Part shown: one piece after another, positions 13,894 through 47,704 of the stretch
Layout: every line of letters begins with the position of its first letter
Numbering within the stretch: position 1 is the stretch's first letter
Assembly (NCBI GenBank): GCA_965198125.1
Contig: CBDAOQ010000003.1
Span: 3,407,953 to 3,471,952, forward strand
Source: Candidatus Versatilivorator sp.
GTDB lineage: Bacteria > Acidobacteriota > Terriglobia > Versatilivoradales > Versatilivoraceae
Length of the DNA stretch: 64,000 nt
Direction: 5' to 3'
The notes under the pieces: generated by a model
What the model was told of the DNA's origin: nothing
The model's input: the letters and a program-made list of their open reading frames with translations, nothing else
The model's database searches: none
Program-made: the position numbers and the translations under genes

Positions 13894-14511
13894 ATGGGTG
13901 GGCATCAGGTGAAACGTCTTGCGATCTTGTTGTCCGGGCGCGGCTCCAACTTCGAGGCCATCGCCGACAGTGTCCAGGAGGGCCGTTTGCCGGCCCGCAT
14001 CGAGTTGGTGGTCAGCAACCTGGCCTCGGCCGCCGGACTGGAAAAAGCGCGGCGGCGGGGTTTGAAAACGGTCGTCATCCCCTCCGCAGGTGTGGCTCGG
14101 GAGGACTATGACCGGCGCCTGGTCGAGGAGTTGAAGCGGCACCGGGTGGAGCTGGTTTGCCTGGCTGGCTTCATGCGGATCCTCAGTCCCTTCTTCGTCC
14201 GGTCCTTTCCCAACCGAATCCTGAACATCCATCCCTCCCTGCTTCCGGCCTTTCCCGGACTGCATCCCCAGCGTCAGGCGCTGGAGTCCGGGGTCCGATT
14301 CGCGGGCTGCACCGTCCACTTCGTGGATGAAGGGGTGGATTCGGGTCCCATTCTGTTGCAGGCCGTGGTGCCGGTGCTGGAGAGCGATGACGAAGAGTCC
14401 CTGGCCGCGAGGATTCTTGCAGAAGAGCACCGGCTTTATCCCCGGGCAATTGGGATGGTGGTTCGGGATGAAGTGCGTCTGAAAGGGCGCAGGGTGGTCC
14501 GCAGGTCCTGA
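13894..14511 (+). CDS. purN: phosphoribosylglycinamide formyltransferase
   Basis: KRLAILLSGRGSNFEAI and the formyltransferase core HPSLLPAFPG. Start may be an earlier GTG/ATG (13864). Confidence 0.85.
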   Translation: MGGHQVKRLAILLSGRGSNFEAIADSVQEGRLPARIELVVSNLASAAGLEKARRRGLKTVVIPSAGVAREDYDRRLVEELKRHRVELVCLAGFMRILSPFFVRSFPNRILNIHPSLLPAFPGLHPQRQALESGVRFAGCTVHFVDEGVDSGPILLQAVVPVLESDDEESLAARILAEEHRLYPRAIGMVVRDEVRLKGRRVVRRS

Positions 14512-14788
14512 CTGCCGGATCGCGGAGCGCTATTCAGATCGAGGGTTTTTCCTCCCGAGTCCGTCAAGGATCAGGTGACACTGAACCCGTTTGCCGTCTG
14601 AAGCTCAATGGCCACAAAAGGCACAAAAACACAAAAAGAACCATCGGATCGGCAAGACTCGAAATCAAGAAACTCGTTTTGTGACTTTTATGCTTTTTGT
14701 GGTGAATGTCGGAGCCTGTAGCACATCACCTTTGCCGCCTCAATGTCGTTCCCGATTGCGAACTTTGCAAAAGGCTCTGGAATATGAA

Positions 14789-14994
14789 CATGGATGCACA
14801 GGATGCACAGGATAAAACGGGACGAGATGACGCGGCACAGGAAGTGGACTCGCTCGATGATCGGGTACGTATTCCGATTGACCCATGAGCGTGGGAGCGG
14901 GTTTTGGGTAATCCATGTAGGAACATAGGCGATGGTTGAATTCAAGACGGTGCAACCGCCCGCCAATTAATCCTGTATATCCTGTCCATCCATG
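14789..14994. repeat. MITE-like unit with about 25-bp terminal inverted repeats (CATGGATGCACAGGATGCACAGGAT ... ATCCTGTATATCCTGTCCATCCATG), copy 1
   Basis: The two termini are reverse complements of each other. Related units occur at 21557-21811, 47106-47238, 47261-47408, 47439-47489 and 54439-54505. The internal segment CTCGATGATCGGGT...GATCCATGAGCKTGGGAGCGGGTTTTTGG is shared with the 21.6-kb copy. Confidence 0.7.
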
Positions 14995-15071
14995 TAAATA
15001 AACCAAATACTCATACTTGACTGTGAACCGGTTTCGCGCCATCCGGCGCGGGGCGTTGTTTCGGACAAGTT

Positions 15072-15117
15072 GGGCCCCCGCCCCCACGACGGGGCGGATC
15101 ATCCGAGAGTGAAACAA
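15072..15117. repeat. GC-rich hairpin (GGGCCCCCGCC..GGGGCGG) followed by conserved ATCATCCGAGAGTGAAACAA motif, copy 1
   Basis: Near-identical motifs at 21371-21416 and 21449-21490. Confidence 0.6.
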
Positions 15118-15173
15118 TCGGAAATCGACAATCCTTTCGTGACCTTGGTATCCCGTCGCGGTTAACCTCAACG

Positions 15174-15250
15174 CCTTAGTGGCCCTTCGTCGTTCTTCGT
15201 GGCCCTTCGTGGATAACTCTTTTTTCTTTTGTTTCGGACAAGTAGAGAGG
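15174..15250. repeat. 9-bp tandem CTTCGTGGN array ending in GGATAACTCTTTTTTC...GTTTCGGACAAGT (short copy of the about 280-bp arm repeat)
   Basis: CCTTAGTGGCCCTTCGTCGTTCTTCGTGGCCCTTCGTGGATAACTC; homologous to 21870-22170, 33964-34240 and 47556-47700. Confidence 0.65.
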
Positions 15251-15263
15251 GAATCGCGTAACC

Positions 15264-16481
15264 GTGACTGTTGAGGAACAACTGGCCTTCCTGCAACAGG
15301 GAGTCGCCGAGCTGATTCGACCGGAGGAGCTTCGAGCCCGGCTGGCCCGCTCGGCTGAAACCGGAAGGCGGTTGCGGATCAAAGCCGGTTTCGATCCGAC
15401 GGCGCCGGACCTGCATCTGGGCCACACGGTCATGCTGCGCAGCATGAGGCGTTTTCAGGACCTGGGCCACACGGTCATCTTCCTGATCGGCGACTTCACC
15501 GGTTTGATCGGGGACCCCTCCGGGCGCAGCGCCACCCGCAAGCCTTTGAGCCGGGAGCAGGTGGCGGAGAATGCCGAGACCTACAAGCAGCAAGTGTTCA
15601 AGATCCTGGATCCGGAAAAAACTACCATCGACTTCAACAGTCGTTGGATGACGCCCTTTAGCAGCGAGCAATTTCTCAAGTTGGCCTCCCGCTACACCGT
15701 GGCCCGCATGCTGGAGAGAGACGACTTCAGCAAGCGATTGAAGAAGTCACAGCCTGTCGCCATTCACGAGCTCATTTATCCCCTGGTTCAAGGGTACGAT
15801 TCGGTGGTGTTGGAAGCCGACGTGGAAATGGGCGGCACCGATCAAAAGTTCAATCTGCTGGTGGGGCGGGAGCTGCAGAGGGAATATGGACAGGAACCCC
15901 AAGTGCTGCTGATGCTGCCGCTACTGGAGGGATTGGACGGGGTGCAGAAGATGTCCAAGTCCTTGGGAAACGCCATTGGGATCCAGGAACCGGCTTCGGA
16001 GATCTTCGGGAAGGTGATGTCGATTTCGGATGCCCTCATGTATCGCTACTACGAACTCTGTACCGACCTGAGCTCGTCCGAGATCGACCGAATCCGAAAA
16101 CAGGTGGCAGAAGGCAGCCTGCATCCCAAGGCTGCCAAGGTGGACCTGGCCAAGAGCATCGTGCGAGAGTTTCATTCGCGCCAGGCCGCCGACCGGGCCG
16201 AGGAGGAGTTCCATCGCATCCATTCTCAGAGGCTGCTCCCCAATCGAATGGAGGAGAAAAGGCTGCCGGTTTCTACGGAAGGGCTGCGGCTTTCGAAATT
16301 GATGGTACGGGTGGGGCTGGCCCCCTCGGTGGGCCAGGCCGTTCGCTTGATCACCCAGCAGGCGGTATCCCTGAACCATCAGAAGGTCACCGACGTCAAG
16401 GCGGAGATGGATTGTTCCCGGCCCTCCTCCTGGGTCCTGAAGGTGGGGAAGCGCGGCTTCGTGAAGGTGATTGTCGGGTGA
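15264..16481 (+). CDS. tyrS: tyrosine--tRNA ligase
   Basis: Class I HIGH motif DLHLGH and KMSKS motif QKMSKSLGN; C-terminal S4-like domain; GTG start. Confidence 0.9.
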
Positions 16482-16743
16482 GCCTGCCGGGAGCGGAACC
16501 GTGGGAATCACGGGATCTTCCTTATGATTTTTGAGGTAGGCGGGGATCACAGTCTACCGGAACAATCCTTTGGATGCTGGTGCCGGACTGGGACCCAGCG
16601 TTCCGCTTCGCCCATGCAGTCCTTTTTCGAAGTTATGTGAATCATTCTCGCGGTGTTCCTTGGTTGACAGGGAACAGTGGTTGGAGTAGCCTTGCCTCTG
16701 CAGTCTCAGGAGCAATGACAATTCTCGGGAAGCGGGAGGAATT

Positions 16744-17064
16744 ATGAGAAACGGAGTCCTGATTTTCTTGCTGGCGGTTGCGCTGACAGGCGGCCATCTC
16801 ATGGCGGGTGAGGCCTTGACGGGACACATCTCCGATGCCAAGTGCGGCGCTGCCCACGCCGACCATTCCGCCAAGTCGATCGGTTGCGTCACGGGGTGTG
16901 TAAATGGCGGTGAGAAGCCCGTGTTCGTCACGGGAGACAAGAAAGTCCTCCAGATCGCCAATGCCGACAAGGTGATGGCCCATCTCGGCCACAAGGTGGA
17001 GGTCACCGGCAAGGTGATGGACGGAACCCTGACCATCAAGTCGGTGAAGCACCTGGCCCCTTAA
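16744..17064 (+). CDS. small secreted Cys/His-containing protein, function unknown
   Basis: N-terminal signal peptide MRNGVLIFLLAVALTGGHLMA; coding-like codon usage; 106 aa. Confidence 0.5.
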   Translation: MRNGVLIFLLAVALTGGHLMAGEALTGHISDAKCGAAHADHSAKSIGCVTGCVNGGEKPVFVTGDKKVLQIANADKVMAHLGHKVEVTGKVMDGTLTIKSVKHLAP

Positions 17065-17289
17065 GGGTTGCACCCGACGGCAATCTTCCGGGGTAGGCGA
17101 TTCGGCCTTGCCCCCTTTCACTTCTGCAGGTCGCTGACCGGCTGAGTCCCCGTTGCGCCAGGGGTGCGACGGGGGCCGTAGTTTCCTCCAAGGCAGTTCC
17201 TTGCCCCCCCCCTGTCTCATTTTGTGGAACTGCATCCTCCGGCCCGGGGAGTTGGAGCCCAGCCCCTCAGCTTGTGACATAATGGTTTC

Positions 17290-17682
17290 ATGTTCAAAAT
17301 TCTCGCCCTCTTCCTCCTCCTTCCCTTGATAGAGTTGGCCCTGCTGATCGAGATCGGCAGCCACATCGGCACACTGGCCACCGTGGGGCTGATCCTCGCC
17401 ACCGGGGCCTTGGGCGCCTTTCTCGCACGCAGCCAGGGGCTGGAGGTTCTGCGACAGTTGCGGGTGGAAACGGCAGCCGGACGACTCCCGGCGGACCCGC
17501 TGGTTGACGGGGTGATCATCCTGCTGGCGGGCACCGTTCTGCTGACTCCGGGAGTCCTGACCGACATCCTGGGCTTTTTGTGCCTGATTCCGGCGTTCCG
17601 GCAATTTCTGAAAGCGATGCTTTGGCGAAAGTTGAGGCATTGGGTGGAACAGAATCGGGTTCAGGTCTCAGTCAACCTTTAG
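17290..17682 (+). CDS. fxsA: FxsA family inner-membrane protein
   Basis: Two N-terminal TM helices and the conserved GVLTDILGFLCLIPAFR motif typical of FxsA; 130 aa. Confidence 0.75.
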   Translation: MFKILALFLLLPLIELALLIEIGSHIGTLATVGLILATGALGAFLARSQGLEVLRQLRVETAAGRLPADPLVDGVIILLAGTVLLTPGVLTDILGFLCLIPAFRQFLKAMLWRKLRHWVEQNRVQVSVNL

Positions 17683-17719
17683 CATTTCAGCGGACACCCC
17701 GCATCGGGCGCGACAGGCC

Positions 17720-18079
17720 ATGAAATCCTCAGGGGCTTCAACCGATGTGGTCGTCGACAGCCGGACCGGCCTGGTCTGGAGCCGGCGAGACAATGGAAGG
17801 CGCCTCAACTGGCATGATGCCGCCGGCTGCGCGCAGAATCTGGATTTGGGTGGCTTTCACGATTGGCGCTTGCCCACTCTCGAGGAGCTCCATGGGCTGT
17901 GGGATCCGCCCCGCCGCACCATTCGAAAGCCCTTTGAATTGACAGGAGCCTGGGTTTGGAGCGGCACCCGGGCCGGGGCCGACCATGCCTGGTGTTTCTA
18001 CTACGCCATTGGGATGCGGGTGCGCTATCCGCTCAACGTGTCCTATGATTTGAGGACCCTGTTTGTGAGAGACCCCTAG
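17720..18079 (+). CDS. DUF1566 (Lcl C-terminal domain-like) protein
   Basis: WRLPTLEEL motif characteristic of DUF1566; 119 aa. Confidence 0.55.
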   Translation: MKSSGASTDVVVDSRTGLVWSRRDNGRRLNWHDAAGCAQNLDLGGFHDWRLPTLEELHGLWDPPRRTIRKPFELTGAWVWSGTRAGADHAWCFYYAIGMRVRYPLNVSYDLRTLFVRDP

Positions 18080-18163
18080 ATGGGATTCCTCACCGGGTTC
18101 CAGATTAGCCGGGAGTGCCGTGCGAACCGGCTGGGCGGGATTTGCCCGCGGGAAGGAGAAAAA

Positions 18164-19804
18164 ATGCTGGGCAGCCAGGTGATCGCCCAACTCTTGAAAC
18201 GGGAAGGAGTGGAGCAGGTGTTCTGCTTTCCACTGACTCCGATCCTCGACGCCTTGACCGAGGCCGGCATCCGGCTGATCGTGGCCCGTCAGGAACGGGT
18301 GGCGGGCAACATGGCGGACGGTTTCTCGCGAACCACTTGCGGGGACCGAATCGGGGTGGTGACAGTGCAGCAGGGTCCGGGAGCCGAGAACGCCTTCGCC
18401 GGGATCGCCCACGCCTATACCGATTCGAGCCCCATCCTCTTCCTTCCGGGTCATCCCGGGCGAAACCAGGTTGGGGTCCCACCCACCTTCGGCGCACTGG
18501 AGAACTACCGGGCCACCACCAAGTGGGCCGACCGGGTGCCGGCGGCAGCAGCCATCCCCGGACGGATGGCTCGGGCTTTTACCGCCTTGCGTTCGGGGCG
18601 CCCCGGACCGGTCCTGCTGGAGATTCCGGTGGACGTGGCCGAGGAGGAGTTTCCGGGTCCCCTGGAGTACCAGCCGGTGCCGAAAATAAGGACCGGTGGA
18701 GACCCCGCGGCTGTCAGGGAGGCCGTTCGGTTGCTGCTGGCCGCCAAGCGGCCGCTCATCTGGGCAGGGCAGGGGGTTTTCTATGCCAAGGCCTCCAGTG
18801 AGCTGGAGCAGGTGGCGGAGCAGTTGGCGGCGCCGGTGATGACCTCGCTCCAGGGTAAGAGCGCCTTCAACGAGACGCACCCCCTGGCCCTGGGGACGAC
18901 CGGATACAGCCAAACCGCCATGGTGGGCGAGCATCTGGCGGCCAGCGATGCCCTGTTGGTCGTCGGGGCCAGCCTGACCCGTTCCCTGTTCGCCCCCACC
19001 ATTCCCAACGACGGAAGGGTTCTGATTCACGCCACCCTGGACTGGAAGGATCTGAACAAGGGCTATCGGGCCGATGTGCCCATCCTGGGGGATGCCAAAC
19101 TGGTGCTGCAACAGGTGCTGGAGGAGATTGGCCGCCATTCGGGGAATGGGGAAAGGGAGGCTCGGCGCCAATCGGTCCAGGCCGGCATAGCGAGCCTACG
19201 GAAGGCTTGGCGGGCCCGCTGGGCTGGCAAGCTCCGATCCTCCCAGGTCCCCATCAACCCCTATCGAGTCATCGGGGAGCTGATGAAAGCGGTGGACCCG
19301 GCCTCAGCCATGGTCACCCACGATTCCGGCTCCCCCCGAGATCAAATCGCTCCATTTTATGAGGCGGTCACTCCGCGCGGTTACCTGGGGTGGGGAAATT
19401 CGACCCAATTGGGATTTTCCCTGGGCGCCGCCATGGGGGCCAAGCTGGCGGCTCCGGACAAGTTGGTGGTGACCTTCATGGGAGATGCGGCCTTTGGGAT
19501 GGTCGGCATGGATCTGGAGACCGCGGTGCGGGAACACATCCCCATCCTGATTCTTCTGGTAAACAATTCGGCCATGGGCGGCTACGAGCAGTACATCCCC
19601 AAGGCTGCCATTGAGGGTCGCGTTAAATTCCTGTCCGGGAACTACAGCCAGGTGGCTCGGGGGCTGGGGGCCTACGCCGAGCGGATAGACCGTCCGGAGG
19701 CGGTACAGGCCGCCTTGCAACGGGGAATAGCCGCAACTCGGGAGGGACAACCGGCCCTGCTGGAGTTCATCACCTGTGAGGAAAGGGATATCGCCAAGCG
19801 GTAG
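18164..19804 (+). CDS. thiamine pyrophosphate-dependent enzyme (acetolactate synthase / benzoylformate decarboxylase-like)
   Basis: Three-domain TPP enzyme organization with a C-terminal GDAAFGM-type TPP-binding motif. Strong RBS GGAAGGAGAAAAAATG at the chosen start. Confidence 0.8.
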   Translation: MLGSQVIAQLLKREGVEQVFCFPLTPILDALTEAGIRLIVARQERVAGNMADGFSRTTCGDRIGVVTVQQGPGAENAFAGIAHAYTDSSPILFLPGHPGRNQVGVPPTFGALENYRATTKWADRVPAAAAIPGRMARAFTALRSGRPGPVLLEIPVDVAEEEFPGPLEYQPVPKIRTGGDPAAVREAVRLLLAAKRPLIWAGQGVFYAKASSELEQVAEQLAAPVMTSLQGKSAFNETHPLALGTTGYSQTAMVGEHLAASDALLVVGASLTRSLFAPTIPNDGRVLIHATLDWKDLNKGYRADVPILGDAKLVLQQVLEEIGRHSGNGEREARRQSVQAGIASLRKAWRARWAGKLRSSQVPINPYRVIGELMKAVDPASAMVTHDSGSPRDQIAPFYEAVTPRGYLGWGNSTQLGFSLGAAMGAKLAAPDKLVVTFMGDAAFGMVGMDLETAVREHIPILILLVNNSAMGGYEQYIPKAAIEGRVKFLSGNYSQVARGLGAYAERIDRPEAVQAALQRGIAATREGQPALLEFITCEERDIAKR

Positions 19805-19906
19805 AAACCGGTGGGCTGAGATCGAACCTGCCGCTGGCGGCGACCTGCCGGACCTGCCCTCCCGATCGACGCCACGGGTCCGATCGGGCTTGCCGCCCTG
19901 CCCTGC

Positions 19907-20935
19907 CTACTCGCCACTTCCCAAACTATAGCTGACCACCGTATACAGGGCGTACATTGCCAGCATGGCCACTCCCTGAGAGCGGCTCAGCCGCTCTCTG
20001 CCCGGGAGGAGGCCGATCCTCAAGGTCAGCAGCAGCAGCAGCATGGTTGGGAAAAGGAGGGTAAAGAAGTGGGGATCGGCGATCAGTCCTCCGCGCGTGA
20101 CCGCCCCCGAAGCGCCGACCACGAACAGGACGTTGAGGATATTGGCGCCGATCACGTTGCCCAGCGCTAACTCCCCGTGACTCCGCAGGGCCGCTGTGAC
20201 GGCGATGAACAGCTCTGGCAGGGAAGTGCCGAAAGCCACCAGAGTTGCCGCGATCACGCTTTCCGGAACCTGCAGTCGGACGGCGCACTCGGTGACTGCC
20301 GGGAGGAGAATGCGGGCAGAGACGACCACCAGGGCAATGGCTCCCACCAACTTGGCGGCAATCACCCCGGTCGAGTCCGTTTCGCTCTCCTGTCCCTCTG
20401 ACGACGCCGGGTTTCTTTCCCGGGCCCAGCGGATCGATTGCCAGACATAACCGGCAAGGGCCAGCAGAAAGGCGACGGCCACGAATTGGGTGACTCGACC
20501 GCCGCCGGTGAGGGCATCCCCCGCCGATGGCCAGGGGATACAGGCCAGAACCAGCAGAATGACCGCGGCCAACTGGATGGCATTCTGCCGCATGACGATC
20601 TTCCGGTTGATCCTGGGCGGATCCAGGATACAGGCCAGTCCCAGAATCAGACCGGTGTTGCAGATGATGGAGCCGACTGCGTTTCCCAAAGCCAGACCCG
20701 ATTGGCCTCGGAAAGCGGCCAGAACCGAGACGGCCACCTCCGGCGTAGTGGTCCCCAGGCTCACAATGGTGGCGCCGATCACCACCTCGGGAATGTTCGA
20801 GCGTTGCGACAGGCTGATGGCTGCAGAGATCAGCCAGTCGGCCGCCTTTCCCAAAATGAGCAGGCTGCCCAGGATGACTCCTGCCAGCAGGCTCCAATGG
20901 ATCTCGGACAAAAGGGATTGAAAGGCTTGTTCCAA
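19907..20935 (-). CDS. calcium/sodium antiporter (CaCA/YrbG family)
   Basis: Two alpha-repeat regions (GNAVGSIICNTGLILG, GNVIGANILNVLFVVG) and about 10 TM segments; 342 aa. Confidence 0.8.
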   Translation of the reverse strand: MEQAFQSLLSEIHWSLLAGVILGSLLILGKAADWLISAAISLSQRSNIPEVVIGATIVSLGTTTPEVAVSVLAAFRGQSGLALGNAVGSIICNTGLILGLACILDPPRINRKIVMRQNAIQLAAVILLVLACIPWPSAGDALTGGGRVTQFVAVAFLLALAGYVWQSIRWARERNPASSEGQESETDSTGVIAAKLVGAIALVVVSARILLPAVTECAVRLQVPESVIAATLVAFGTSLPELFIAVTAALRSHGELALGNVIGANILNVLFVVGASGAVTRGGLIADPHFFTLLFPTMLLLLLTLRIGLLPGRERLSRSQGVAMLAMYALYTVVSYSLGSGE

Positions 20936-21122
20936 GGGGTCGAGCGCAGGTTGCAGGGTAGCGGCCGCTTGAGCTGCGAGTGGCTGATGGCGAGGACCGC
21001 TTTGGCGTTGGAGGGTCTCGCAGGCAGGATGCTATTCGTTTCTTTCCAGGATGGCAATCAAATCCCGGTAATTGCTATCGGGAGGGCCGCCCCATGAGAA
21101 CCGGGATTCAGGGGAGAAACCA

Positions 21123-21292
21123 GCGAGGCCGTGCCTCAGACCGACAAGCAAGGGAAAAGAGATATCCACGAAGTAACACGAAGGGACAAAAAAAGATATC
21201 CACGAAGGACCACGAAGGGGCACGAAGAACCACAAATGGACACAAATGGACACGAAGGAGCACGAAGAGACTGATTGATGAATGGTTAATTG
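21123..21292. repeat. conserved unit GCGAGGCCGTGCCTCAGACCGACAAGCAAGGGAAAAGAG followed by 9-bp CACGAAGGN tandem array and CTGATTGATGAATGGTTAATTG
   Basis: About 11 imperfect 9-mers at 21164-21268. The same unit plus a shorter array occurs at 54279-54367 and a truncated one at 54518-54562. Confidence 0.7.
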
Positions 21293-21370
21293 GGGGGGGT
21301 GTAAAAACCGATTTTGCCTAAAATCCGCAATCTACAATCCAAAACAGCCGTACGAGAAATTGGTTAGCCA

Positions 21371-21490
21371 CGCCCCCGCCCGGCATGACGGGGCGGCTCA
21401 TACGGGGTGAAACAGGGGTGTTTCAGAACGAGTGATTAGTGATTAGCCGGGCCCCCGCCGTGCCGGGCGGATCATTCGAGAGTGAAACAA
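21371..21490. repeat. two tandem copies of the GC hairpin + ATCATNCGAGAGTGAAACA motif (copies 2 and 3), separated by a GTGATTAGTGATTAG direct repeat
   Basis: CGCCCCCGCCCGGCATGACGGGGCGGCTCATACGGGGTGAAACAGG and GGGCCCCCGCCGTGCCGGGCGGATCATTCGAGAGTGAAACAA. The perfect palindrome GGGACATGTCCC lies at about 21511. Confidence 0.6.
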
Positions 21491-21556
21491 CGGACCCTTA
21501 TGGCTTTTTGGGAGTAGGGACATGTCCCGTTAAACCGGTTTGTTGTATTAGGGAAC

Positions 21557-21811
21557 ATCGATAGACAGGATAGACAGGATAAACAGGACGAGAAGCTGCT
21601 GCACAGGAAGGTGACTGGCTCGATGATCGGGTGTGGTTTGAAGTGATCCATGAGCTTGGGAGCGGGTTTTTGGAATCGGTATTAGGAGAAGGCGATGATG
21701 ATGGCCGTCTCTAAGGCAGGACTTGCCATTCAGTCTCACAAGCCCGCCAAGGTCTGCTTTCGGGAGAAGCCGGTTGGCGACAACACATCCTGTTTATCCT
21801 GTCCATCCATG
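21557..21811. repeat. MITE-like unit with ACAGGATA-repeat terminal inverted repeats, copy 2
   Basis: CATCGATAGACAGGATAGACAGGATAAACAGGAC ... ATCCTGTTTATCCTGTCCATCCATG; internal sequence homologous to copy 1. Confidence 0.7.
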
Positions 21812-21869
21812 TAAATCAGGGATCTGCTCATGCCCGACGCCGAGACGAAGGGCCGGGAACTTAATTTCG

Positions 21870-22170
21870 TGATCTTGGCGTCACTTCGTGCCCTTGGTGG
21901 ATAACTTTTTCCCCTTCGTGTCTTTCTTCTTGGCCCTTCACGGACCCCTTTCGACTATTTTCCAACCCCTTAGAGTCCCTTCGCGGATTAATCTCTTGCC
22001 CCCTGTACAGATACTTTGGCGCCCTTCGTGGAAATCTATTCCCCCTTCCCGACCTTTGGCGGAACCCTCTTGAGCCTTCTCCAACCCCTTAGTGGCCCTT
22101 CGTGGTCCTTCGTGCCCCTTCGTGGATATCTTTTTTTGTCCTTTGCGGATAACGCTCAAGTGTTTCAGGC
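21870..22170. repeat. about 280-bp arm repeat with CTTCGTG 9-mers, ending GGATAACGCTCAAGTGTTTCAGGCAAGC, abutting the stop of the minus-strand gene at 22175
   Basis: About 85% identical to 33964-34240; partial copies at 47556-47700 and 15174-15250. It is the inverted-orientation counterpart of the CACGAAG array at 21164-21268. Confidence 0.7.
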
Positions 22171-22174
22171 AAGC

Positions 22175-22813
22175 TCAATCAGTAGAATCCGATGCGCCTG
22201 CAGTTGATGAGTCCCCGTCGGAGCCTCGACCGGCGCTCTCGCCTTCGAGGTCCGGCTCCAGATGCACCGCATAGCTCTGGGCTACCGGAATGCAGAAGGT
22301 GTCGGCGTCATCGCAGGCGAAGTAGCGAACAGTAAGATGCAGAGGCCGGCTGTGGCCGGTGACGGCGATGTCCAGCAGGAACTCCCGGGGATCCTTGTCG
22401 GCGGGTTGCTCGACCTTGGGGCCGGTCCCGCGGTTGGGGGTGACCCGGACTCCCTCGGGAGTCTCCAGCCTGAATTCCAGTGGCTTGACCCGGTTGTTCC
22501 AGTGGACGGCGTAAAGTGGGTCCAGATGAAACCCGATATAGAGCTTGCCCTCTCCCCGGGTCAGGAAGGGTGGGTCCACCGCGGCCCGAAGCGTGGCGTA
22601 GAAGGGGATGGGTCTTTTCTGCTTGCCCGGCACGATTTTCAGCGGGACCATTGCGGAGGGCCGCCGGATCCCGGGAACGATGCCGGAGGGAATGTTTGGG
22701 TTGGGCCGGCCGAGCTTCAGCTCCGTCTGCAGCTCGGCCGCCTGAGCCCGTTCCATTGTCATGGGCGTCAAGGCAAGCAGGCCCAATCCAAACCATGCGG
22801 TTGCTCTCATCAC
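22175..22813 (-). CDS. secreted hypothetical protein
   Basis: Signal peptide MMRATAWFGLGLLALTPMTMERAQA. ATGA start/stop overlap with the upstream MATE gene suggests an operon. Confidence 0.5.
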   Translation of the reverse strand: MMRATAWFGLGLLALTPMTMERAQAAELQTELKLGRPNPNIPSGIVPGIRRPSAMVPLKIVPGKQKRPIPFYATLRAAVDPPFLTRGEGKLYIGFHLDPLYAVHWNNRVKPLEFRLETPEGVRVTPNRGTGPKVEQPADKDPREFLLDIAVTGHSRPLHLTVRYFACDDADTFCIPVAQSYAVHLEPDLEGESAGRGSDGDSSTAGASDSTD

Positions 22814-24288
22814 CGGTCTTCCTCTTCTTGTAGTGTACAGCCTGCCGAACGGCGGCCGCTACCGGGTTTGAAGACGCTGCCCGTAGCGTCGCGGTTCCCC
22901 TGAAGTGCAGCCGCCCGGCCCTCACTGAGCTCTCTGGACTTGCGGATCCAGACCGCCAGCAGCACCGTGCCGATGGCGATCAGCCCGGCCGACAGTCCGA
23001 CCCACAGGCCTTGAACCCCCCAATTGAAATGAAAACAGAGAAAATAGCCCAGCACCATCCCGACCGGCCAATGTCCGATCAGGTTGACCACCATGGGCGT
23101 CCTGGTATCGGCGGCGCCTCTCAGGTTGCCGGTGGCCACCACCTGAACACCGTCGAAAAACATGAAAGCCGCGGCGATCAGCAGCAGGGGCGTTCCGATG
23201 CCGATCACCCGCGGGTCTCCGGTAAACAAGCGCATGATCCCCTGAGGCAGCAGGACAAAAAGCAGGCCCGACACCAGCATGAATCCGCTTCCCAGCAGCA
23301 GGGCCATCCACCCGGAGTCCGCCGCCCGCTGGGGCTCTCCTCGGCCGATTTCCCGACCCACCCGCACCGCTCCGGCCGAGGAGATGCCCAGCGGAACCAT
23401 GAACACGAAGCCGGCCGCGTTCAGGGCGATCTGGTGGGCGGCCACCGCCGCAGGCTCCAGCTTGCCCGCCAGCGAGGTCACGGCGGCGAAGACGCCCACC
23501 TCCAGGGTGGTCTGCAGGGATGCCGGAAGGCCCAGGTTCACCATCCGGCGCATTCTGTCCAGGTCAGGCTTGAAAGAGATCCTCAGCAGGGGTGTCCGCT
23601 GGCGGCGGTGGTATCGGAAGATGAGCATCCCCAGGCCGAGAGCCATGTACAGGCGCGAGATGCAGGTCGCCCAGCCCGCGCCCTCGACTCCCATGGCGGG
23701 GAACCCCAGTTTGCCGAATATGAAGACCCAGTTGGCGCAGACATTCACCAGGTTGGCGGTGACCAGCACGACCATGATCCCCTTGACTCGCCCGATTCCT
23801 TGCAGATAGCGGCGAAAGGTGTTGTAGAGCATCAGCGGGAATATGCTCCAACTCACCGCTTTCAGGTAAGGTGGCGTGAGCGCCAGCACCTCCGGGTGGA
23901 AGCCCCAGAACTGCAGGTAGGGCAAGCTGCCCCAGAGGATGAACATCATAAAGGGGCTGAGCAGAAGGCTGAGATGAATGCCGTGCACCAGCCATCCCTG
24001 GCAGTCCTCCCATTGATTGGCTCCGTGGGCTTGCGACACCAGGGTGTCCAAGCCCAAAGACAAGCCCATCCCCAGGATAGTTGCCGCCAGAAATACCGCC
24101 GTTCCGATGCTCACGGCCCCGATGGCTTCGGCACTCAGGCGTCCCACCATCATGGTATCCACCAGGCTCATGGTCATCCAGCCCAGCTCGGTCATGACCA
24201 CCGGGACCGACAGGGATACCATCGGTTTCAGTTCTCGAAGCAATCTCGCCGGGCAGTCCTTTGGGACAGGAGTCGGAATGTGGGGCAT
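22810..24288 (-). CDS. MATE family efflux transporter
   Basis: 12-TM protein with MATE-like N-terminus MVSLSVPVVMTELGWMTMSLVDTMMVGRL. Start set at MPHIPTP; the ORF-track N-terminal extension is probably not translated. Confidence 0.8.
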   Translation of the reverse strand: MPHIPTPVPKDCPARLLRELKPMVSLSVPVVMTELGWMTMSLVDTMMVGRLSAEAIGAVSIGTAVFLAATILGMGLSLGLDTLVSQAHGANQWEDCQGWLVHGIHLSLLLSPFMMFILWGSLPYLQFWGFHPEVLALTPPYLKAVSWSIFPLMLYNTFRRYLQGIGRVKGIMVVLVTANLVNVCANWVFIFGKLGFPAMGVEGAGWATCISRLYMALGLGMLIFRYHRRQRTPLLRISFKPDLDRMRRMVNLGLPASLQTTLEVGVFAAVTSLAGKLEPAAVAAHQIALNAAGFVFMVPLGISSAGAVRVGREIGRGEPQRAADSGWMALLLGSGFMLVSGLLFVLLPQGIMRLFTGDPRVIGIGTPLLLIAAAFMFFDGVQVVATGNLRGAADTRTPMVVNLIGHWPVGMVLGYFLCFHFNWGVQGLWVGLSAGLIAIGTVLLAVWIRKSRELSEGRAAALQGNRDATGSVFKPGSGRRSAGCTLQEEEDR

Positions 24289-24462
24289 TCTTTTTGTTTT
24301 GTGGTTTGGGAAGTTACTCCGTAAACTCTCGGCACGATTCAGGCCGGTGCTGCAGTCGGGCCGGCGAGCTTCAGGAAGCGGGAGCCGGACGGCTGGATAA
24401 TCCCCCGGCGGGAGCGAGCCGGCGGCGGAAGCCGGTTCACTCAACGGGCAAAGGAGGTCCCC

Positions 24463-25572
24463 TTGGTCATGCAACAGGAATCCAATGTAGCAAAAAACAG
24501 GCCCATGGAGCGCCGGGAATTTTTGCGGGCGGCAGGAAAGATCGCCGCGGTCACCGCCATGACCTCCGAGGCCTTCGGCCGCAATTTCGGCCCTGAGGCG
24601 GAGCCGGTGCGCTATCCGGAGCCGGACGTGATTGCCCTCGACAAGCGCTTCAAGTACAAGCTGGGCAACTCACCCATCCTGCGCCTGCACCGCGGGACCC
24701 TGTGGGCTGAAGGACCGGCCTGGAGCGGCGTCGGCCGCTACCTGTTGTGGAGCGATATCCCCAACAACGAGCAGCTTCGCTGGCTGGAGGAAGACGGCCA
24801 CGTGGCACGGCGATTTCGCTTTCCCTCCGGGAACTCCAACGGGAACACCTTTGACTTTCAGGGCCGGCAGATCGCTTGTGAGCACGGCAACCGCAGGGTG
24901 GTGCGCTACGAGTTCAACGGTGGAGTCACGGTGCTGGCAGACTCCCACGGGGGCAAGCCGCTCAATGCTCCCAACGACGCCGTGGTCCATCCCGATGACG
25001 GTGCCGTCTGGTTTACCGATCCCGGCTACGGCAGCCTGATGAACTACGAGGGGCACCGGGCCGACACGGGATCGCTCCAGCCCTTTCAGAAGGAAGCCAT
25101 CTATCGGATCGACCTCCGGCAGGGTACCATTGAAAAAGTGGCGGACGACATCTACAAGCCCAACGGGCTCTGTTTTTCTCCCGACTACAAGAAACTCTAC
25201 GTGGCCGACACCGGCGCCTCACACTATCCGGAAGCACCCAGAAACATCAAAGTCTGGGACCTGGTGGACCAGAGGCACCTGCGAAACGGGAGAGAGTTCG
25301 CTTCGATGGAGCTCGAGGGCAAGACCGGTTTCGCCGACGGGATCCGGGCCGATACCGACGGCAATATCTGGGCCAGCGCCGGTTGGGTGGGGGACGGTTA
25401 CGACGGGGTACACATCTTTGCCCCCAACGGCGACCGCATCGGCTTGATCAGGCTTCCGGAGATCTGCTCCAACGTCTGCTTTGGGGGAACCAAGCGCAAC
25501 CGGCTGTTCATGACCGGGAGTCAGTCCCTGTACGCGGTCTACGTGGAGACCCAGGGAGCCCACCTGACCTGA
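24463..25572 (+). CDS. SMP-30/gluconolactonase/LRE family protein with Tat-type signal
   Basis: RREFLRAAG twin-arginine motif; six-bladed beta-propeller lactonase family features. Confidence 0.8.
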   Translation: MVMQQESNVAKNRPMERREFLRAAGKIAAVTAMTSEAFGRNFGPEAEPVRYPEPDVIALDKRFKYKLGNSPILRLHRGTLWAEGPAWSGVGRYLLWSDIPNNEQLRWLEEDGHVARRFRFPSGNSNGNTFDFQGRQIACEHGNRRVVRYEFNGGVTVLADSHGGKPLNAPNDAVVHPDDGAVWFTDPGYGSLMNYEGHRADTGSLQPFQKEAIYRIDLRQGTIEKVADDIYKPNGLCFSPDYKKLYVADTGASHYPEAPRNIKVWDLVDQRHLRNGREFASMELEGKTGFADGIRADTDGNIWASAGWVGDGYDGVHIFAPNGDRIGLIRLPEICSNVCFGGTKRNRLFMTGSQSLYAVYVETQGAHLT

Positions 25573-25638
25573 AGGTGATGGCCTTTCCCACCAGCGCAGC
25601 TTTCGCGACCCACACACCGGGGGGCACCCGCGGCCTTA

Positions 25639-26121
25639 TCAGCTTGAATCCGCGCCCGCGGTCTTGTTTCCGCGGCCACTGATGAGGAGCAGGATGGAGC
25701 CCAGGGCCAGGCCGATGACCATGGCCATCACGATCCAGACCACCGCGTTGCGCCCCGGAATCACCAGGTAGCCTTGCAGGGGGCCGATACCCTCGCCCAC
25801 GTTGCCTCCCTGAGTGACGAGGAAGCGGGGGGACTGCCACTGCCACAGGTAGGCCAGCCAGTAGGTCACCATGACCATCAATCGGGTGCAGAGGGTATAG
25901 AGGAAAAGCTCCTTGAATAGTGCTCTGTAGGGCCGGTCGCTCTGAGACTCCTGGATCCGGTAAGCAAGGTAGAAGGGTACCAGAAAGTGCAGCCAGGCGA
26001 CCCCCAGCAGATTGTTGATCGAATCGGGCGCACCCAGTTGTTCCAGGATGATTCGCAGCACGACCAGGGTTGCGGCGACGATCAGCGGCCATTTCAGCCT
26101 GTCTCCGGTATCCGGTGCCAT
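25639..26121 (-). CDS. hypothetical integral membrane protein
   Basis: Four predicted hydrophobic helices. Chosen over the overlapping Arg/Pro-rich alternate-frame ORF 25508-26167. Confidence 0.45.
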   Translation of the reverse strand: MAPDTGDRLKWPLIVAATLVVLRIILEQLGAPDSINNLLGVAWLHFLVPFYLAYRIQESQSDRPYRALFKELFLYTLCTRLMVMVTYWLAYLWQWQSPRFLVTQGGNVGEGIGPLQGYLVIPGRNAVVWIVMAMVIGLALGSILLLISGRGNKTAGADSS

Positions 26122-26293
26122 GGGTTGTCTCCTTGGGGAATCGGTCGACGTTGGTGGCTTGTAGCATATCATGGGCTGGAACTCGGAGTGATTCCTCCCG
26201 GCTGGGGTTGGGAATCGAAACGGGGCGTGCGGGCTCGGGAAGGAGACGAGTGATACATGGTTAGGTTCGGTCCCGCTGATCGGATGTCTCTTT

Positions 26294-27748
26294 GTGGCCG
26301 CGAGCGGTGGCTCGGCTCGAGCCCTGGATTTCGTGCAGCAGATCGCTCCCGGTGTCCACCTGGCCGGCTTCGCCGACCGTTACGGCTCCGCCAACTGCGG
26401 TTGGATCGAGTTGGAGGATCGGACGGTGCTGATTGACCTGCCGCCGGGGATCGGGGCCGAGGCCTTCCTGGCGGCGGTTGCCCGAACCAGCTCGAAGCCG
26501 GTCCGCTCGTTGTTGCTCACCAGTGAACCGGACCCGGAAAACGAGACGCTGCGGGCGCTCAAGGCGAGGGGCGTTGAGGTGGTGGAGGTTTCCGGGGCGG
26601 GAAGAAAAATCCCGGTGGGGAAGGGGCCAAGATCCATTGAAACGATCCCCTGCGATGACGGCCTGGAGACCGGGGCGACAGCCATCTACCTGCCGCGGGA
26701 GCGGATCCTGTTTGCGGGCCGGATGGTCATCCACGGTCCGCGGGCGGAGCTGTCGGGCCGGGACACCCTGGCCTGGATGGCTACGCTTCGAAAACTGAAG
26801 CGGCTTGGGGCCAAGCGGGTGGTTCCGGGCTACGGAAGCTGGGAGGGGGAAGATCTTCTGGGCCGCCAGATGCGTTATCTGGCCGAGTTGCGCCGCCAGG
26901 TGGCTTACGGGATCTGCCTGGGCCTCCCGCTGGAAGAGATCCGCAAAGGGATCCTGCTGCCCGCTTCCTACTATGCCTGGACGGCTTACGGAGAGCCCAC
27001 CGCCGAAGACATCGAGCACCTGTTCCGGGAACAGACGGTCCCCGCGGCTCCCTTCGGGCGAGAGGAGCCCTCTGGACAGGACAAGGGTCCTCAGGCCCTG
27101 GTCCTGATCGGTGACCGGTTTCATGAGCCGGAGCACATCCGGGAGGGCTTGAAACCGGTCTTCGAGGCGACCGGGGTGACCCCCCACTTTGCCGTAGACG
27201 TCCGAGCGCTGTCAGCCGGAAACCTGGCCCAGGTGCAACTGTTGGTGGTCCTGAAGGACGGCATGCTGTGGCCGGAGGGGAATGAACGTCCCTACCGCCA
27301 GTGGATGACCATGGAGCAGCAGAAGGCGGTGGTTGAATTTGTGGAAGCCGGAGGGGGATTTCTGAACCTGCACAACTCCATGGGACTCTACCCCGAGGGC
27401 CCTTATCTCGACCTGGTGGGAGGGCGTTACAAGGGGCACGGACCTCTGGAGAGATTTGGGGTGGAGGTCGTGGATGGGGACCATCCCGTTACCCGGGGCG
27501 TGAGCAACTTCTTCGTGGCCGACGAGCAGCACACGCCTTCCTACGACTCGCAGAAGGTGGAGTTGCTGCTGAGGAATCGCTCCGATCAAGGCACGGTGGG
27601 TGCCGCCGGTTGGGCGTATCAGGCCGGCAAGGGACGCCTTTGTCACCTGGCCAACGGCCATACTCGAGAATCCCTGGACCACCCGATGTTCCAGCGCCTG
27701 ATGCGGAACGCCGTCAAGTGGTGTCTGGCTGCGCCGGACCCCCGATAG
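26294..27748 (+). CDS. fusion protein: N-terminal MBL-fold domain plus C-terminal ThuA-like (class I glutamine amidotransferase-like) domain
   Basis: N-terminal half resembles metallo-beta-lactamase fold proteins. C-terminal half has ThuA hallmarks: GGGFLNLHNS, GGRYKGHGP, DGDHPVTRGV. GTG start. Confidence 0.65.
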   Translation: MAASGGSARALDFVQQIAPGVHLAGFADRYGSANCGWIELEDRTVLIDLPPGIGAEAFLAAVARTSSKPVRSLLLTSEPDPENETLRALKARGVEVVEVSGAGRKIPVGKGPRSIETIPCDDGLETGATAIYLPRERILFAGRMVIHGPRAELSGRDTLAWMATLRKLKRLGAKRVVPGYGSWEGEDLLGRQMRYLAELRRQVAYGICLGLPLEEIRKGILLPASYYAWTAYGEPTAEDIEHLFREQTVPAAPFGREEPSGQDKGPQALVLIGDRFHEPEHIREGLKPVFEATGVTPHFAVDVRALSAGNLAQVQLLVVLKDGMLWPEGNERPYRQWMTMEQQKAVVEFVEAGGGFLNLHNSMGLYPEGPYLDLVGGRYKGHGPLERFGVEVVDGDHPVTRGVSNFFVADEQHTPSYDSQKVELLLRNRSDQGTVGAAGWAYQAGKGRLCHLANGHTRESLDHPMFQRLMRNAVKWCLAAPDPR

Positions 27749-27792
27749 GGATCGGCGCCGATCCGGCTCCCCGCCTGGTCTGGCCGGGCGGG

Positions 27793-28857
27793 CTAGTTCT
27801 TCTTTTTCTCCTCTTGTGCCGAGAAGGTGGTTTTCACTTTGCTGGAGAGGGCCGTGATCATGGTCTTGGCCTCTGCAGCGTGCGACCCCATGGGCTCGAT
27901 CTCCAGATATCTCTGATAGGCCTCGACGGTGCCCGGAGCGGGGATGGTCTGACCATCGTCGGTCACCGTGGCCATGCTGACCAGGGTGACAGCCAACTGG
28001 TACTGGGACTCGGCGTTCTGGGGATCGGCCTTGAGGGATTTCCTGAAGGCCTCTACCGCCTCTTTTAGTCTGCCCGTTTGCACGTACGCCGCCGCAATTC
28101 TGAAATAGGTCCGGGATAGCTGTTTGGGCGCCACTTCGGAGATTTTCTCGACAGCGGCGTAGGCTTCCTTTTCCTTTCCTCCCATGGCAAGAGCTACGGC
28201 CAGGCTGGTTCTGTAAGCGACTTCCGAGTTGGGGTTGGGCTTCTTCTTTGCCAGAGCGGTGAGAGCCATCTGGTAGCTGCCGGCAGCCTGGTCATATTTT
28301 CTCATCTGCCGGTAGGTGTCGCCCAGAAAAGCGTGGATCACATGCTGATCGGGGTCCATCGCGGCAGCCTTCTGGAAGGCCTGGGCGGCCATGGTGAAGT
28401 TCTTTTTCTTGAACATGTCCCGGCCCCGCTGAAACTCCTGATTCAGCTTGGCGTAGGCGGCCTGATTGCCCCCTCCCTCTCCTCCTTTGGAGGTGCGCAG
28501 AGCGATGGGGGGCAGGATGCGGGATTCCTTTCCACCCAGGCAATCGGACTTTGGACTGCAGACGTCGATCGTGTTTTCCCAAACTTTCCTGTCATCGATG
28601 AGCACCGAGACCTTGTATCGTCCGATCGGAATAAAGTAGCGATTGAAACGCCCCTTCTTGTTCGTTTTGGCCTCAATGGGTTTTCCGGCCCTCGTTAAGT
28701 TCTCGAATCTGATGACGGCCTTGTGAACGGGTTTGCCGTCCAGAGAGACGGCCCCTTCAACGGTGCCTCTTTGAGCCAGGGCTTCCGGCGGCTCAGCCAG
28801 AGCGGCAAAGGTCAGTACCAGGCCACAGGCCAGAAAATATTTCCAATGTTTCCTCAT
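27793..28857 (-). CDS. secreted carboxypeptidase-regulatory-like + TPR repeat protein
   Basis: Signal peptide MRKHWKYFLACGLVLTFAALA. Multiple TPR-like repeats (AYAKLNQEF, AFQKAAAMDP, YRTSLAVAL...). Start trimmed from the ORF-track 488-aa call. Confidence 0.7.
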   Translation of the reverse strand: MRKHWKYFLACGLVLTFAALAEPPEALAQRGTVEGAVSLDGKPVHKAVIRFENLTRAGKPIEAKTNKKGRFNRYFIPIGRYKVSVLIDDRKVWENTIDVCSPKSDCLGGKESRILPPIALRTSKGGEGGGNQAAYAKLNQEFQRGRDMFKKKNFTMAAQAFQKAAAMDPDQHVIHAFLGDTYRQMRKYDQAAGSYQMALTALAKKKPNPNSEVAYRTSLAVALAMGGKEKEAYAAVEKISEVAPKQLSRTYFRIAAAYVQTGRLKEAVEAFRKSLKADPQNAESQYQLAVTLVSMATVTDDGQTIPAPGTVEAYQRYLEIEPMGSHAAEAKTMITALSSKVKTTFSAQEEKKKN

Positions 28858-29098
28858 GGGAACCTCCAGGGTCATCTCCTCAGGGGATGGGGCGCGGTTG
28901 CCGTTACGGAACCGGGACGTCGGTCTGGAAAATTGCGCCAACGATAGGAGTTCAAGCACCTTTGAATTATACGCCAGGGGGCCTGGTGCTGCCACCCTTT
29001 CTTCAGCGGCCGCGGGTTGGCGCTCGCTTGCATTGACGAAGAAACCGGTCCCTGGGTTTCGGAAAGGAGGGAATGAATGAGGAGGCGGTTTCAGCCAA

Positions 29099-30220: not shown

Positions 30221-30782
30221 GGTGGATTCCTCACTGGATGGAAACGGTCGCGGCCCCCGGCGTCACAGGCTCCGCCGGGCCCTCCGGAACGTCACCCGGG
30301 CAGGGTGTTCACGATCGTGGCAACCGGAGTGATGGTGATTGAAAGGATGCTGAAACTCCAGGTCCGAGAATGGCTGCAAAGGCGTTCGAACCCCTGCGAC
30401 ATCCGCGCTCCGATTGGACTGAGGAGGTTCCCGAAGGCGTGCTTGCGGGGTGCTTGCCGTATGTCAAAGGCCGTTGGTGAAGGGGACTCGGATTCCCCTG
30501 CTGCAAGACCGGAAACATATATTCAACCCCGGATAGAGTCAATCTCAAAAAGGGATGTCGATTGGCATGATTCTTGGGGACAGGCTGTGTTTACGGACCG
30601 GACACAATCGCGTCGTTCGGTCGAATCCCGGGAATCACCGGTCCGGACAGTTCTCCCAGCGCCGCGGTTTTCTCTTGGTGTTGTCCTGAGACTTCGACTA
30701 AATTAGGTGGCTGATCCGCATCCATGAGGCCGGGCCTCCGCCAGACCCGGGAACGCCGACATCGAAGGGAGAAGAATCGAAG

Positions 30783-32057: not shown

Positions 32058-32062
32058 GGTTC

Positions 32063-33931: not shown

Positions 33932-33963
33932 GGACCGGCTCCGCCCGGGCCTAAACCGGTAAC

Positions 33964-34240: not shown

Positions 34241-34265
34241 ATTTGGGAAAGGTTCCCTCGGCCGG

Positions 34266-47700: not shown

Positions 47701-47704
47701 GATC

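Follow-up and report, generated by a model that had tools for sequence, protein, structure and literature searches.

Short tandem arrays of the 8-mer CACGAAGG recur in a 64,000-nucleotide stretch of the genome of Candidatus Versatilivorator sp. (contig CBDAOQ010000003.1, positions 3,407,953 to 3,471,952; hereafter the window). These arrays look like the non-coding, cis-acting "arms" of a family of repeat elements arranged around a gene of about 125 codons for a PD-(D/E)XK nuclease (Pfam PDDEXK_3, NCBIfam GxxExxY). With a probability that we put at roughly 0.6, they are decayed, gene-less derivatives of GxxExxY cassettes, and their 8-mers are cis-acting recognition sites. In its intact form the cassette appears to carry two to four phased 8-mers directly 5' of the start codon, with a period of 9 to 10 bp, CACGAAGG plus two variable nucleotides being one of several variants; on the 3' side an inverted array seems to lie just past the stop codon, and some loci appear to have a direct copy followed by a hairpin instead. 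Gene-less forms (array, short loop, inverted array) appear to be scattered through many genomes. Judged from its sequence, the window has nothing but decayed derivatives: arms standing alone (solo arms), a single pair of arms separated by about 600 bp, and nested cassette remnants with internal deletions that keep 9-bp arms of their own. Along with other repeat modules, these derivatives make up a mosaic filling the five intergenic gaps. The window arrays probably have no dedicated host function, and they are ordinary selfish or junk DNA.

The 8-mer occurs in 16 copies in the window, where 2.9 ± 1.6 are expected, and none of 100 dinucleotide shuffles reaches 16. Fourteen of the 16 copies lie in five intergenic gaps (14512-15263, 20936-22174, 33932-34265, 46938-47704, and 54262-54706) that make up about 5.5% of the window in a map of open reading frames (ORFs) based on G+C content at third codon positions (GC3). 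The original prediction had named six places with arrays, and arrays are found at all six; its range of 4 to about 11 units per array fails at 54330-54345, which has two units only.

The array unit is the 8-mer followed by two variable nucleotides, a purine-rich spacer, giving a period of 10 bp. Tandem Repeats Finder (TRF) reports period 10 at 21200-21267 (6.8 copies), 22086-22125, 34171-34210, and 15174-15212. Units start at 21167, 21177, 21201, 21211, 21221, 21231, 21241, 21251, and 21261, in 10-bp steps except for a 24-bp gap between 21177 and 21201, and a scan allowing one mismatch finds 10-bp steps inside every cluster of the window. The 9-bp period first proposed for the arrays is replaced by one of 10 bp. 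Across 103 sequences, neighbouring units are spaced by 10 bp in 437 of 504 cases and by 9 bp in 54, a count partly biased by the 10-bp search pattern. The interval 21160-21270 reads GATATC-CACGAAGT-AA-CACGAAGG-(GACAAAAAAAGATATC)-CACGAAGG-AC-CACGAAGG-GG-CACGAAGA-AC-CACAAATG-GA-CACAAATG-GA-CACGAAGG-AG-CACGAAGA.

In the second gap (locus 2) a plus-strand array (21167-21268) is opposed by a minus-strand arm (21865-22125) with about 597 bp between them, and the large imperfect inverted structure that had been proposed from facing orientations about 600 bp apart is real (21167-22125). Solo arms are located at 15135-15212, 33960-34210, and 47540-47635. Arrays had also been described over the whole of 21880-22125 and 33975-34215; they are present in both, but the regular tandem array is confined to the last 40 bp of each. 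The remainders, 21880-22085 and 33975-34170, are two copies of a composite of about 270 bp with irregularly spaced CCCTT-N-G-N-GG motifs and no regular array. The outer array end in the window is GATATC or GATAAC, followed by CACGAAGG, and the outer side of every window copy consists of GATAWC, a T-run 6-8 nt past it, and then GTYTSAGRCA.

The arrays are non-coding, and the peptides that ORF tracks read through them are artefacts. A 10-bp period shifts the reading frame at every unit (TKG / HEG / xRR), so the arrays are unable to encode a repeat peptide. In 181 arrays the spacers are purine-rich (GG, GA, AA, AC, GC) and the purine strand is nearly free of T, which leaves six frames without stops and thereby accounts for spurious ORFs and over-extended gene calls in databases. 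The Thr-Lys-Gly-His-Glu ORFs had been called spurious at the outset, and frame rotation, intergenic placement, and stop-free frames agree. Translation of arrays within conserved proteins, which had been named as evidence to the contrary, is seen superficially in a few GxxExxY proteins that start MNHEGHEGARRM... or MIHEGHEGTRRM... (P0037, P0104). A real Thr-Lys-Gly-His-Glu-Gly peptide, for example as an N-terminal extension of GxxExxY proteins, could be read from such database entries, but it is scarcely credible: the period is not a multiple of three, every window array lies outside the high-GC3 ORFs, and arrays are found on either strand and past stop codons as well. Furthermore, most of the 120 best-scoring homologues have 125 amino acids, and all eight of the 125-126-amino-acid homologues examined by sequence start at a conserved M(T)ELILKDEV just past the array, which indicates that the longer forms are calls over-extended through a stop-free array.

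PDDEXK_3 genes are the neighbours that connect the arrays to a protein family. Arrays adjoin them at loci L025, L077, L073, L104, and L105; in L025 (Trichlorobacter thiogenes) and L077 the array leads directly into a gene with a match to Pfam PDDEXK_3 (E = 2e-21 and 3e-39). Homologues returned by a protein search number more than 7,800; they carry the name "GxxExxY protein" and typically have 125 amino acids. Loci of the P0104 and P0109 proteins run from the stop codon of a host gene, (TGA)TCC, through (CACGAAGGNN)2-3, ATG, the gene, and its stop to a second direct array, a loop, and an inverted array. In L073 an intact gene lies between two complete hairpins. In L104 and L073 the gene has direct repeats of 15-18 bp on its two sides. 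The L073 repeat (2935-2965 and 3465-3495, about 18 bp, GAGGT.TCT.ATGGCCACT) spans the ribosome-binding site together with codons 1-3; one copy stands ahead of the inserted GxxExxY gene and the other ahead of the host gene that comes next, and the repeat may be the footprint of cassette entry.

An independent sample was obtained by scanning metagenomes with protein alignment A1, which gave 80 loci. The upstream array is repeated after the stop codon in 49 of 71 usable PDDEXK_3 genes (inverted in 36, direct only in 13), compared to 1 of 75 shifted control windows for inverted and 1 of 75 for direct copies. Under a stricter score (inverted repeat ≥14), 40 of 72 loci are positive against none of 80 controls. 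The unit varies by locus (CACGAAGG/A, CACGAATG, CACGAATT, CGCGAATG, CGCTAAT, CGCAGATT, CACAGATT, and CACGGAA, with a period of 9 or 10), and CACGAAG-type arms accompany the proteins closest to the query. Inverted array pairs defined by TRF show a peak of gap length at 368-463 bp, matching the length of the gene.

The aligned PDDEXK_3 proteins share an invariant D70...E80-x-K82, which looks like the PD-(D/E)XK catalytic motif of an active nuclease. PADLOC has no model matching the GxxExxY nuclease, and a sequence search of the Protein Data Bank (PDB) with it gave no match. An AlphaFold model built from 21 close sequences (predicted local distance difference test, pLDDT, 65; predicted template modelling score, pTM, 0.59) is too weak for substrate inference, and Foldseek against PDB found nothing below E = 0.2, the top hit, Cas4-type SSO0001, being not significant. 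In the P0109 loci (L105-L114) the GxxExxY gene with its CACGAAGG arrays stands between N6_N4 methyltransferase and SNF2/helicase genes, with gaps of 10-20 bp. This order is kept in 10 of the 10 contigs listed, placing the cassette inside a restriction- or defence-like operon.

Arrays of this type are widespread in bacterial genomes. An exact scan of a one-genome-per-species collection found three units at 10-bp spacing at at least 102 loci, compared to a chance expectation of about 0.004 for 596 Gb by our own arithmetic, which assumes uniform base composition. The matches listed come from Chloroflexota, Acidobacteriota, Planctomycetota, Armatimonadota, Lentisphaerota, Latescibacterota, Pseudomonadota, Desulfobacterota, and Bacteroidota, and the groups include Dehalococcoidia, Anaerolineae/Caldilineaceae, several classes of Acidobacteriota, Burkholderiales, and Alphaproteobacteria; three Streptomyces matches may be unrelated. 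The same scan of 2.9 million viral contigs gave a single match, indicating that the arrays are essentially chromosomal. A 131-amino-acid ORF (MRTLSEIRREIRALQRKYHRQLTIYRMRRVTE...) with no Pfam family is present in five of the loci examined from the Dehalococcoidia genome OY761558.1 (L002, L004, L054, L078, L088). Each copy follows the same hairpin, with a G-to-A variant as the second arm (GGCACAAAATGGCACAAAACGGCACAC ... CCTTCGTGCCCCTTCGTGTCCCTTCGTGGATAA), and then a Shine-Dalgarno sequence.

The commonest form of the array is a hairpin: an A-rich tract, TWRTC, (CACGAAGGNN)n, a loop of 8-150 nt, (NNCCTTCGTG)n, and GAYWA. Among 37 convergent array pairs, 32 are hairpins with a loop of at most 150 nt. 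The outer-flank consensus is A-rich, then TWRTC, then CACGAAGG, and it has no GTAG or CGTC tag. Spacers are complementary between the arms, and copy number is often unequal. Mismatch between arms is 1.5-6% at core positions and 21-26% at the variable positions within the arm. This difference indicates that the 8-mer is constrained beyond the needs of pairing, and the mostly complementary variable positions indicate that the arms are true inverted copies.

Hairpins of this kind raise the question of function at the RNA level. As in repetitive extragenic palindromic (REP) sequences, long stems could serve the host by terminating transcription, stabilising 3' ends, or offering RNase III sites comparable to 23S rRNA intervening sequences, and the link to the nuclease would then be secondary. 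Most copies outside the window are near-perfect hairpins (predicted -30 to -105 kcal/mol), and many begin at or just past a stop codon. Within-arm variable positions are still about 75-80% complementary between arms, and an A-rich outer flank upstream of the arrays and, in the window, a T-run after the inverted arm resemble the layout of a bidirectional terminator. Several observations nevertheless make this explanation unlikely. Arm mismatches in 45 cassettes show no wobble bias toward the sense strand (48 sense G.U, 44 antisense, 104 transversion), three of the five window sites are solo arms without a pairing partner, and a stem needs no 8-mer conserved across phyla with a variable spacer. 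Array sites have no clear convergent excess (18 convergent and 10 divergent of 73, compared to 100 and 96 of 469 in the background); these counts rest on crude gene calls, and 39 of 154 arrays were placed "inside genes," probably because arrays are stop-free. A consensus scan for terminators and promoters gave no excess over shuffles: the interval 14400-34390 has 21 terminator-like sites against 18.1 ± 4.5, none of which coincides with an array, and the intrinsic terminator was rejected as a candidate on this count. Searches of the whole window against Rfam at the gathering threshold gave no matches, and no tRNA or tmRNA was found in it. A CRISPR array was also considered and rejected, the units being contiguous, without unique spacers, and the Rfam search being empty.

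A conserved 8-mer, a variable spacer, and 10-bp phasing make it plausible that the 8-mers are iterated protein-binding sites. The binding protein could belong to the host, as the original prediction supposed: a regulator, a nucleoid protein, or DnaA marking operon boundaries. The DnaA box is TTATCCACA, and the outermost unit plus flank reads TTATCCACG, one mismatch from this box, in 38 of 210 arrays; 107 of the 210 are within two mismatches of it. Inner units differ from it by 4-7 mismatches, however. Arrays stand in tandem, convergent, and divergent gaps alike, and one and the same gap is filled differently in genomes that are about 96% identical in the flanking genes, which is unexpected for a regulatory site. 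Distribution is also patchy across phyla and tied to one selfish-looking gene family. Host sites of this type are therefore quite improbable, and a nuclease borne by the element fits the evidence better than a host regulator at operon boundaries. Iterons, an origin, or a cluster of DnaA boxes were rejected as well, given five dispersed intergenic sites in which only the outermost unit resembles TTATCCACA and the last position is always G. The likeness to the DnaA box, and another to the parS half-site GTGAAACA, are leads only.

Decayed copies of the cassette are the form in which the element family is met in the window. The features of its array-bearing gaps are as follows.

21167-21268, plus strand: CACGAAGGNN array of nine 10-bp units, two of them CACAAATG variants, with the 24-bp interruption lying within a 34-bp duplication.
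21120-21166, plus strand: outer module of CAGCGAGGCCGTGCCTCAGACCGACAAGC, an A-rich stretch, and GATATC; the module is also present at 54280-54325 and 54521-54556.
21269-21293, plus strand: inner flank AGACTGATTGATGAATGGTTAATTG, common to 54346-54370.
21375-21505, plus strand: two copies (21375-21420 and 21445-21505) of a CCCCGCC-loop-GGCGGGG hairpin with GAGAGTGAAACA after it; a separate module nested between the arms.
21552-21590, plus strand: 9-bp array GATAGACAG, 3.2 copies; left arm of the nested cassette remnant.
21593-21780, plus strand: GxxExxY/PDDEXK_3 pseudogene, truncated and frameshifted, covering profile positions 2-59 of 117.
21783-21815, minus strand: inverted 9-bp array TCCTGTTTATCCTGTCCATCCATG; right arm of the nested cassette remnant.
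21865-22125, minus strand: CTTCGTG composite arm, regular at 10 bp in 22086-22125 only; homologous to 33960-34210.
22126-22172, minus strand: outer module of GATATC, a T-run, and GTGTTTCAGGCAAGC; right end of the composite common to L023, a locus of Ca. Versatilivoraceae.
15135-15212, minus strand: CTTCGTG array, regular in 15174-15212, within a unit of about 190 bp (15045-15245).
33960-34241, minus strand: CTTCGTG composite arm plus outer module of GATAACTC, a T-run, and GTTTCAGGCA; regular in 34171-34210, solo, between convergent genes.
47540-47700, minus strand: CTTCGTG composite arm plus outer module, with units at 47598-47634; solo arm.
54318-54345, plus strand: GATATC and two units (CACGAAGG, GACGAAGA).
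14603-14705, no strand assigned: hairpin of the G-to-A unit variant, CCACAAAAGGCACAAAAACACAAAAAGA ... CTTTTATGCTTTTTGTGG.
14792-14813, 14970-14996, 21560-21588, 21786-21808, 47214-47235, 47384-47404, and 54438-54464: 9-bp arrays.
14791-14996, 47105-47240, 47262-47410, and 54432-54512: other remnants with 9-bp arms.

Head-to-tail 8-mers, a period of 9-10 bp, and an outer end starting (A/G)TCC(A/G)C characterise cassette arms, and the window arrays have all three. An inverted second array is found at locus 2, and the only PDDEXK_3 sequence of the window is the truncated pseudogene with 9-bp arms of its own. The pseudogene fragment (21593-21780), in a translation corrected for frameshifts by hand, matches Pfam PF13366 (E = 5e-9, 36.9 bits) and TIGR04256 (37.2 bits); tblastn without this correction gives E = 6e-5. 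A search for intact relatives of the pseudogene gave only fragments of 39-72 amino acids from the same decayed elements in related genomes. True 9-bp arrays, with a different unit (ACAGGAT type: GGATGCACA, GATAGACAG, ATCCTGTGC), share the gaps with the 10-bp arrays. They form inverted pairs around decayed PDDEXK_3 fragments, and the left arm includes the ATG (MDAQDAQDK..., MDRQDRQDK...). Remnants with such arms measure 81-264 bp; both arms are kept in all of them and the interior is lost to different extents, the pattern expected of what appear to be internally deleted, non-autonomous derivatives.

Elements in the gaps have also moved or been exchanged. The 740 bp at 21440-22172 (hairpin module, pseudogene, and CTTCGTG arm) are 93% identical to L023 in Ca. 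Versatilivoraceae OZ240232.1, and the final 170 bp or so, with the regular 10-bp array of the arm and the outer module, reach nearly 100%. The L023 site is non-orthologous and belongs to a different genus-level genome, with a toxin-antitoxin-like neighbourhood where the window has the 3' end of the gene at 22175-22813. A match with unrelated flanks indicates that, once the gene had decayed, the 740-bp composite was copied or transferred in one piece. Genes flanking the gap are 94.5-97% identical to those of a sister Ca. Versatilivorator sp., OZ253547.1 (locus L031; Acidobacteriota, Terriglobia). Compared to this sister, the gap at 21185-22171 has wholly different contents past the first array units, with synteny kept, indicating that the gaps turn over much faster than the surrounding genes. 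The neighbouring convergent gap measures 124 bp in the window and holds a repeat element of about 630 bp in OZ253547.1.

Other repeat modules share these gaps. A different repeat element, with terminal inverted repeats AACCCGCATTTCTCACC / GGTGAGAAATGCGGGTT, occupies positions 3240-3885 of L031 and is also present in L010, L019, and L102. In L031 it adjoins a CACGAAGG array, at a point where another payload is present in the window; arrays may thus be junctions or hot spots of insertion. The CCCCGCC-loop-GGCGGGG hairpin, the GAGAGTGAAACA module, and the CTTCGTG array together make a unit of about 190 bp bounded by GTTTCRGACAAG, tandemly repeated in sister genomes of Versatilivorator. The hairpin module is found in L068, L051, L085, and L039, a third window copy with GAGAGTGAAACA is at 15055-15118, and the module, which has no Rfam match, may be a structured RNA. 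A conserved 30-mer, (C)TGGCGAGGCCGTGCCTCAGACCGAYAAGC, which includes a small hairpin, GAGGCCGTGCCTC, occurs at 21120-21150, 54280-54309, and 54521-54550, in each case immediately outside an array of the CACGAAGG type.

Several findings weigh against descent of the window arrays from GxxExxY cassettes. The 64-kb window has no intact PDDEXK_3 gene, and the Versatilivorator loci examined yielded no intact nuclease gene flanked by CACGAAGG arms; intact PDDEXK_3 genes with such arms do occur in other organisms. The pseudogene is bracketed by the different, 9-bp ACAGGAT type of arm, and nesting is its only link to the CACGAAGG arms. A PDDEXK_3 match stands beside the array in only 4 of the 102 loci found by the pattern (L025, L073, L077, and in part L065); most arrays are therefore orphans, and we infer that they depend on the nuclease. 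Neither a target-site duplication nor a clean empty site could be made out, and L031 differs at two gaps with boundaries that are not clean. In diverged contigs, several intact cassettes are found at one shared intergenic site of the host, indicating that many cassettes are long-term residents rather than active transposons.

Decayed cassettes remain the preferred explanation, and from sequence we infer mobility of the elements and binding of a protein to them. The conserved 8-mers, presented once per helical turn, would be recognition sites for the element's nuclease. Elements could spread or be exchanged by recombination that the nuclease initiates, or by homologous recombination between arrays, and gene-less derivatives might be propagated in trans, in the manner of MITEs (miniature transposable elements with inverted repeats) and REPINs (pairs of REP sequences in hairpins). 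With direct copies of the array, recombination would be able to add or remove the gene: [A+ loop A-] + [gene-A+] <-> [A+ gene A+ loop A-].

GxxExxY/PDDEXK_3 proteins form a very large family without an assigned function, and the phased-8-mer inverted arms provide a testable hypothesis for their substrate. For annotation, stop-free arrays explain the spurious HEG/TKG/RR "proteins" and the GxxExxY calls that are over-extended at the N-terminus. The fast change of intergenic content in Acidobacteriota, Chloroflexota, and further environmental lineages is likewise accounted for by the arrays. A bolder and more doubtful proposal, which we advance tentatively, is that GxxExxY/PDDEXK_3 genes and phased-8-mer arms constitute an unrecognised, cross-phylum class of paired autonomous and non-autonomous elements, a PD-(D/E)XK analogue of the REPIN system with its REP-associated tyrosine transposase (RAYT), in which the minimal nuclease would read the iterated 8-mers, one helical turn apart, of its own inverted arms and mobilise or recombine the hundreds of gene-less hairpin and solo arrays between the genes of genomes like that of the window. 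This would explain why a family of more than 7,800 homologues has stayed without a function, and mobilisation in trans, if true, would make it a second repeat-nuclease system comparable to REPIN-RAYT with a different enzyme fold. The literature covered, with subscription journals largely outside it, has next to nothing on GxxExxY/PDDEXK_3 and nothing on the repeat-arm architecture. Searches for the 8-mer returned primers only, and no description of the architecture came from searches that combined repeats with intervening-sequence proteins, or PDDEXK with REPIN or MITE. The pairing of repeat and nuclease is thus apparently widespread and undescribed, its novelty being provisional.

Other parts of the window have features of a different kind. 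The ORF at 35944-36354 (plus strand; 136 amino acids) includes an in-frame tandem repeat of five 33-bp copies at 36097-36262 (91% match, TRF score 276) encoding AELRSELKQDI repeats, and has a hydrophobic C-terminus; it is an ordinary coding repeat of the coiled-coil type, unrelated to the arrays. Beside it, a 588-amino-acid ORF at 36578-38344 (plus strand) is transposase-like by eye. A 1294-amino-acid ORF at 58245-62129 (plus strand) has a GC3 of 0.49, compared to 0.75-0.86 in neighbouring genes, and may have been acquired horizontally.

Among known repeats, the short tandemly repeated repetitive (STRR) heptamers of cyanobacteria are short, intergenic, non-coding tandem repeats that occur lineage-wide and have no known function. 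The arrays are likewise short, intergenic, and non-coding, but the STRR unit is 7 bp, and to our knowledge STRR sequences have not been described as inverted arms around a nuclease gene. Intervening sequences in the 23S rRNA genes of Leptospira and Salmonella carry an ORF between inverted repeats, and they share with the cassettes a small ORF in the loop of a long inverted repeat. The cassettes differ in lying between protein-coding genes, in their protein family, and in showing no sign of pairing at the RNA level.

Multiple short, direct protein-binding motifs, inverted between the two ends, are found at the TnsB sites of Tn7, at Mu ends, in CACTA elements, and in plasmid iterons. The arrays have the same repeated motifs per end, inversion between ends, and spacing near one helical turn; however, they have no replication-origin context, their 8-bp units are strictly head-to-tail, and their binding protein is putative. 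MITEs are internal-deletion derivatives of autonomous elements (PMC3184786). Like MITEs, the gene-less forms have terminal inverted repeats, no coding capacity, interiors of variable length with ends kept, and multiple intergenic and nested copies; unlike them, they have no identified target-site duplication, their parent has no recognised transposase, and some copies are solo arms.

The closest analogue is REPIN-RAYT. REP sequences and REPINs are short, palindromic intergenic repeats in many dispersed copies; a small gene of the nuclease type is likewise bracketed by inverted REP repeats, copies that lack the gene are presumed to be moved in trans, and many copies of RAYT genes are long-term vertical residents (PMC3116915, PMC3337134, PMC3733652). 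The GxxExxY elements resemble this system in their dispersed palindromic repeats, in the inverted copies around a small nuclease gene, and in their many resident gene copies. They differ in the enzyme, a PD-(D/E)XK protein of 125 amino acids (GxxExxY) rather than an HUH/Y1 transposase, and in the arm, which consists of phased tandem 8-mers with a period of 9-10 bp, whereas a REP is a single imperfect palindrome of 20-40 nt with a GTAG or CGTC tag. Mobilisation in trans is putative here, and, unlike REP sequences and REPINs, the elements have one 8-mer that is common to several phyla.

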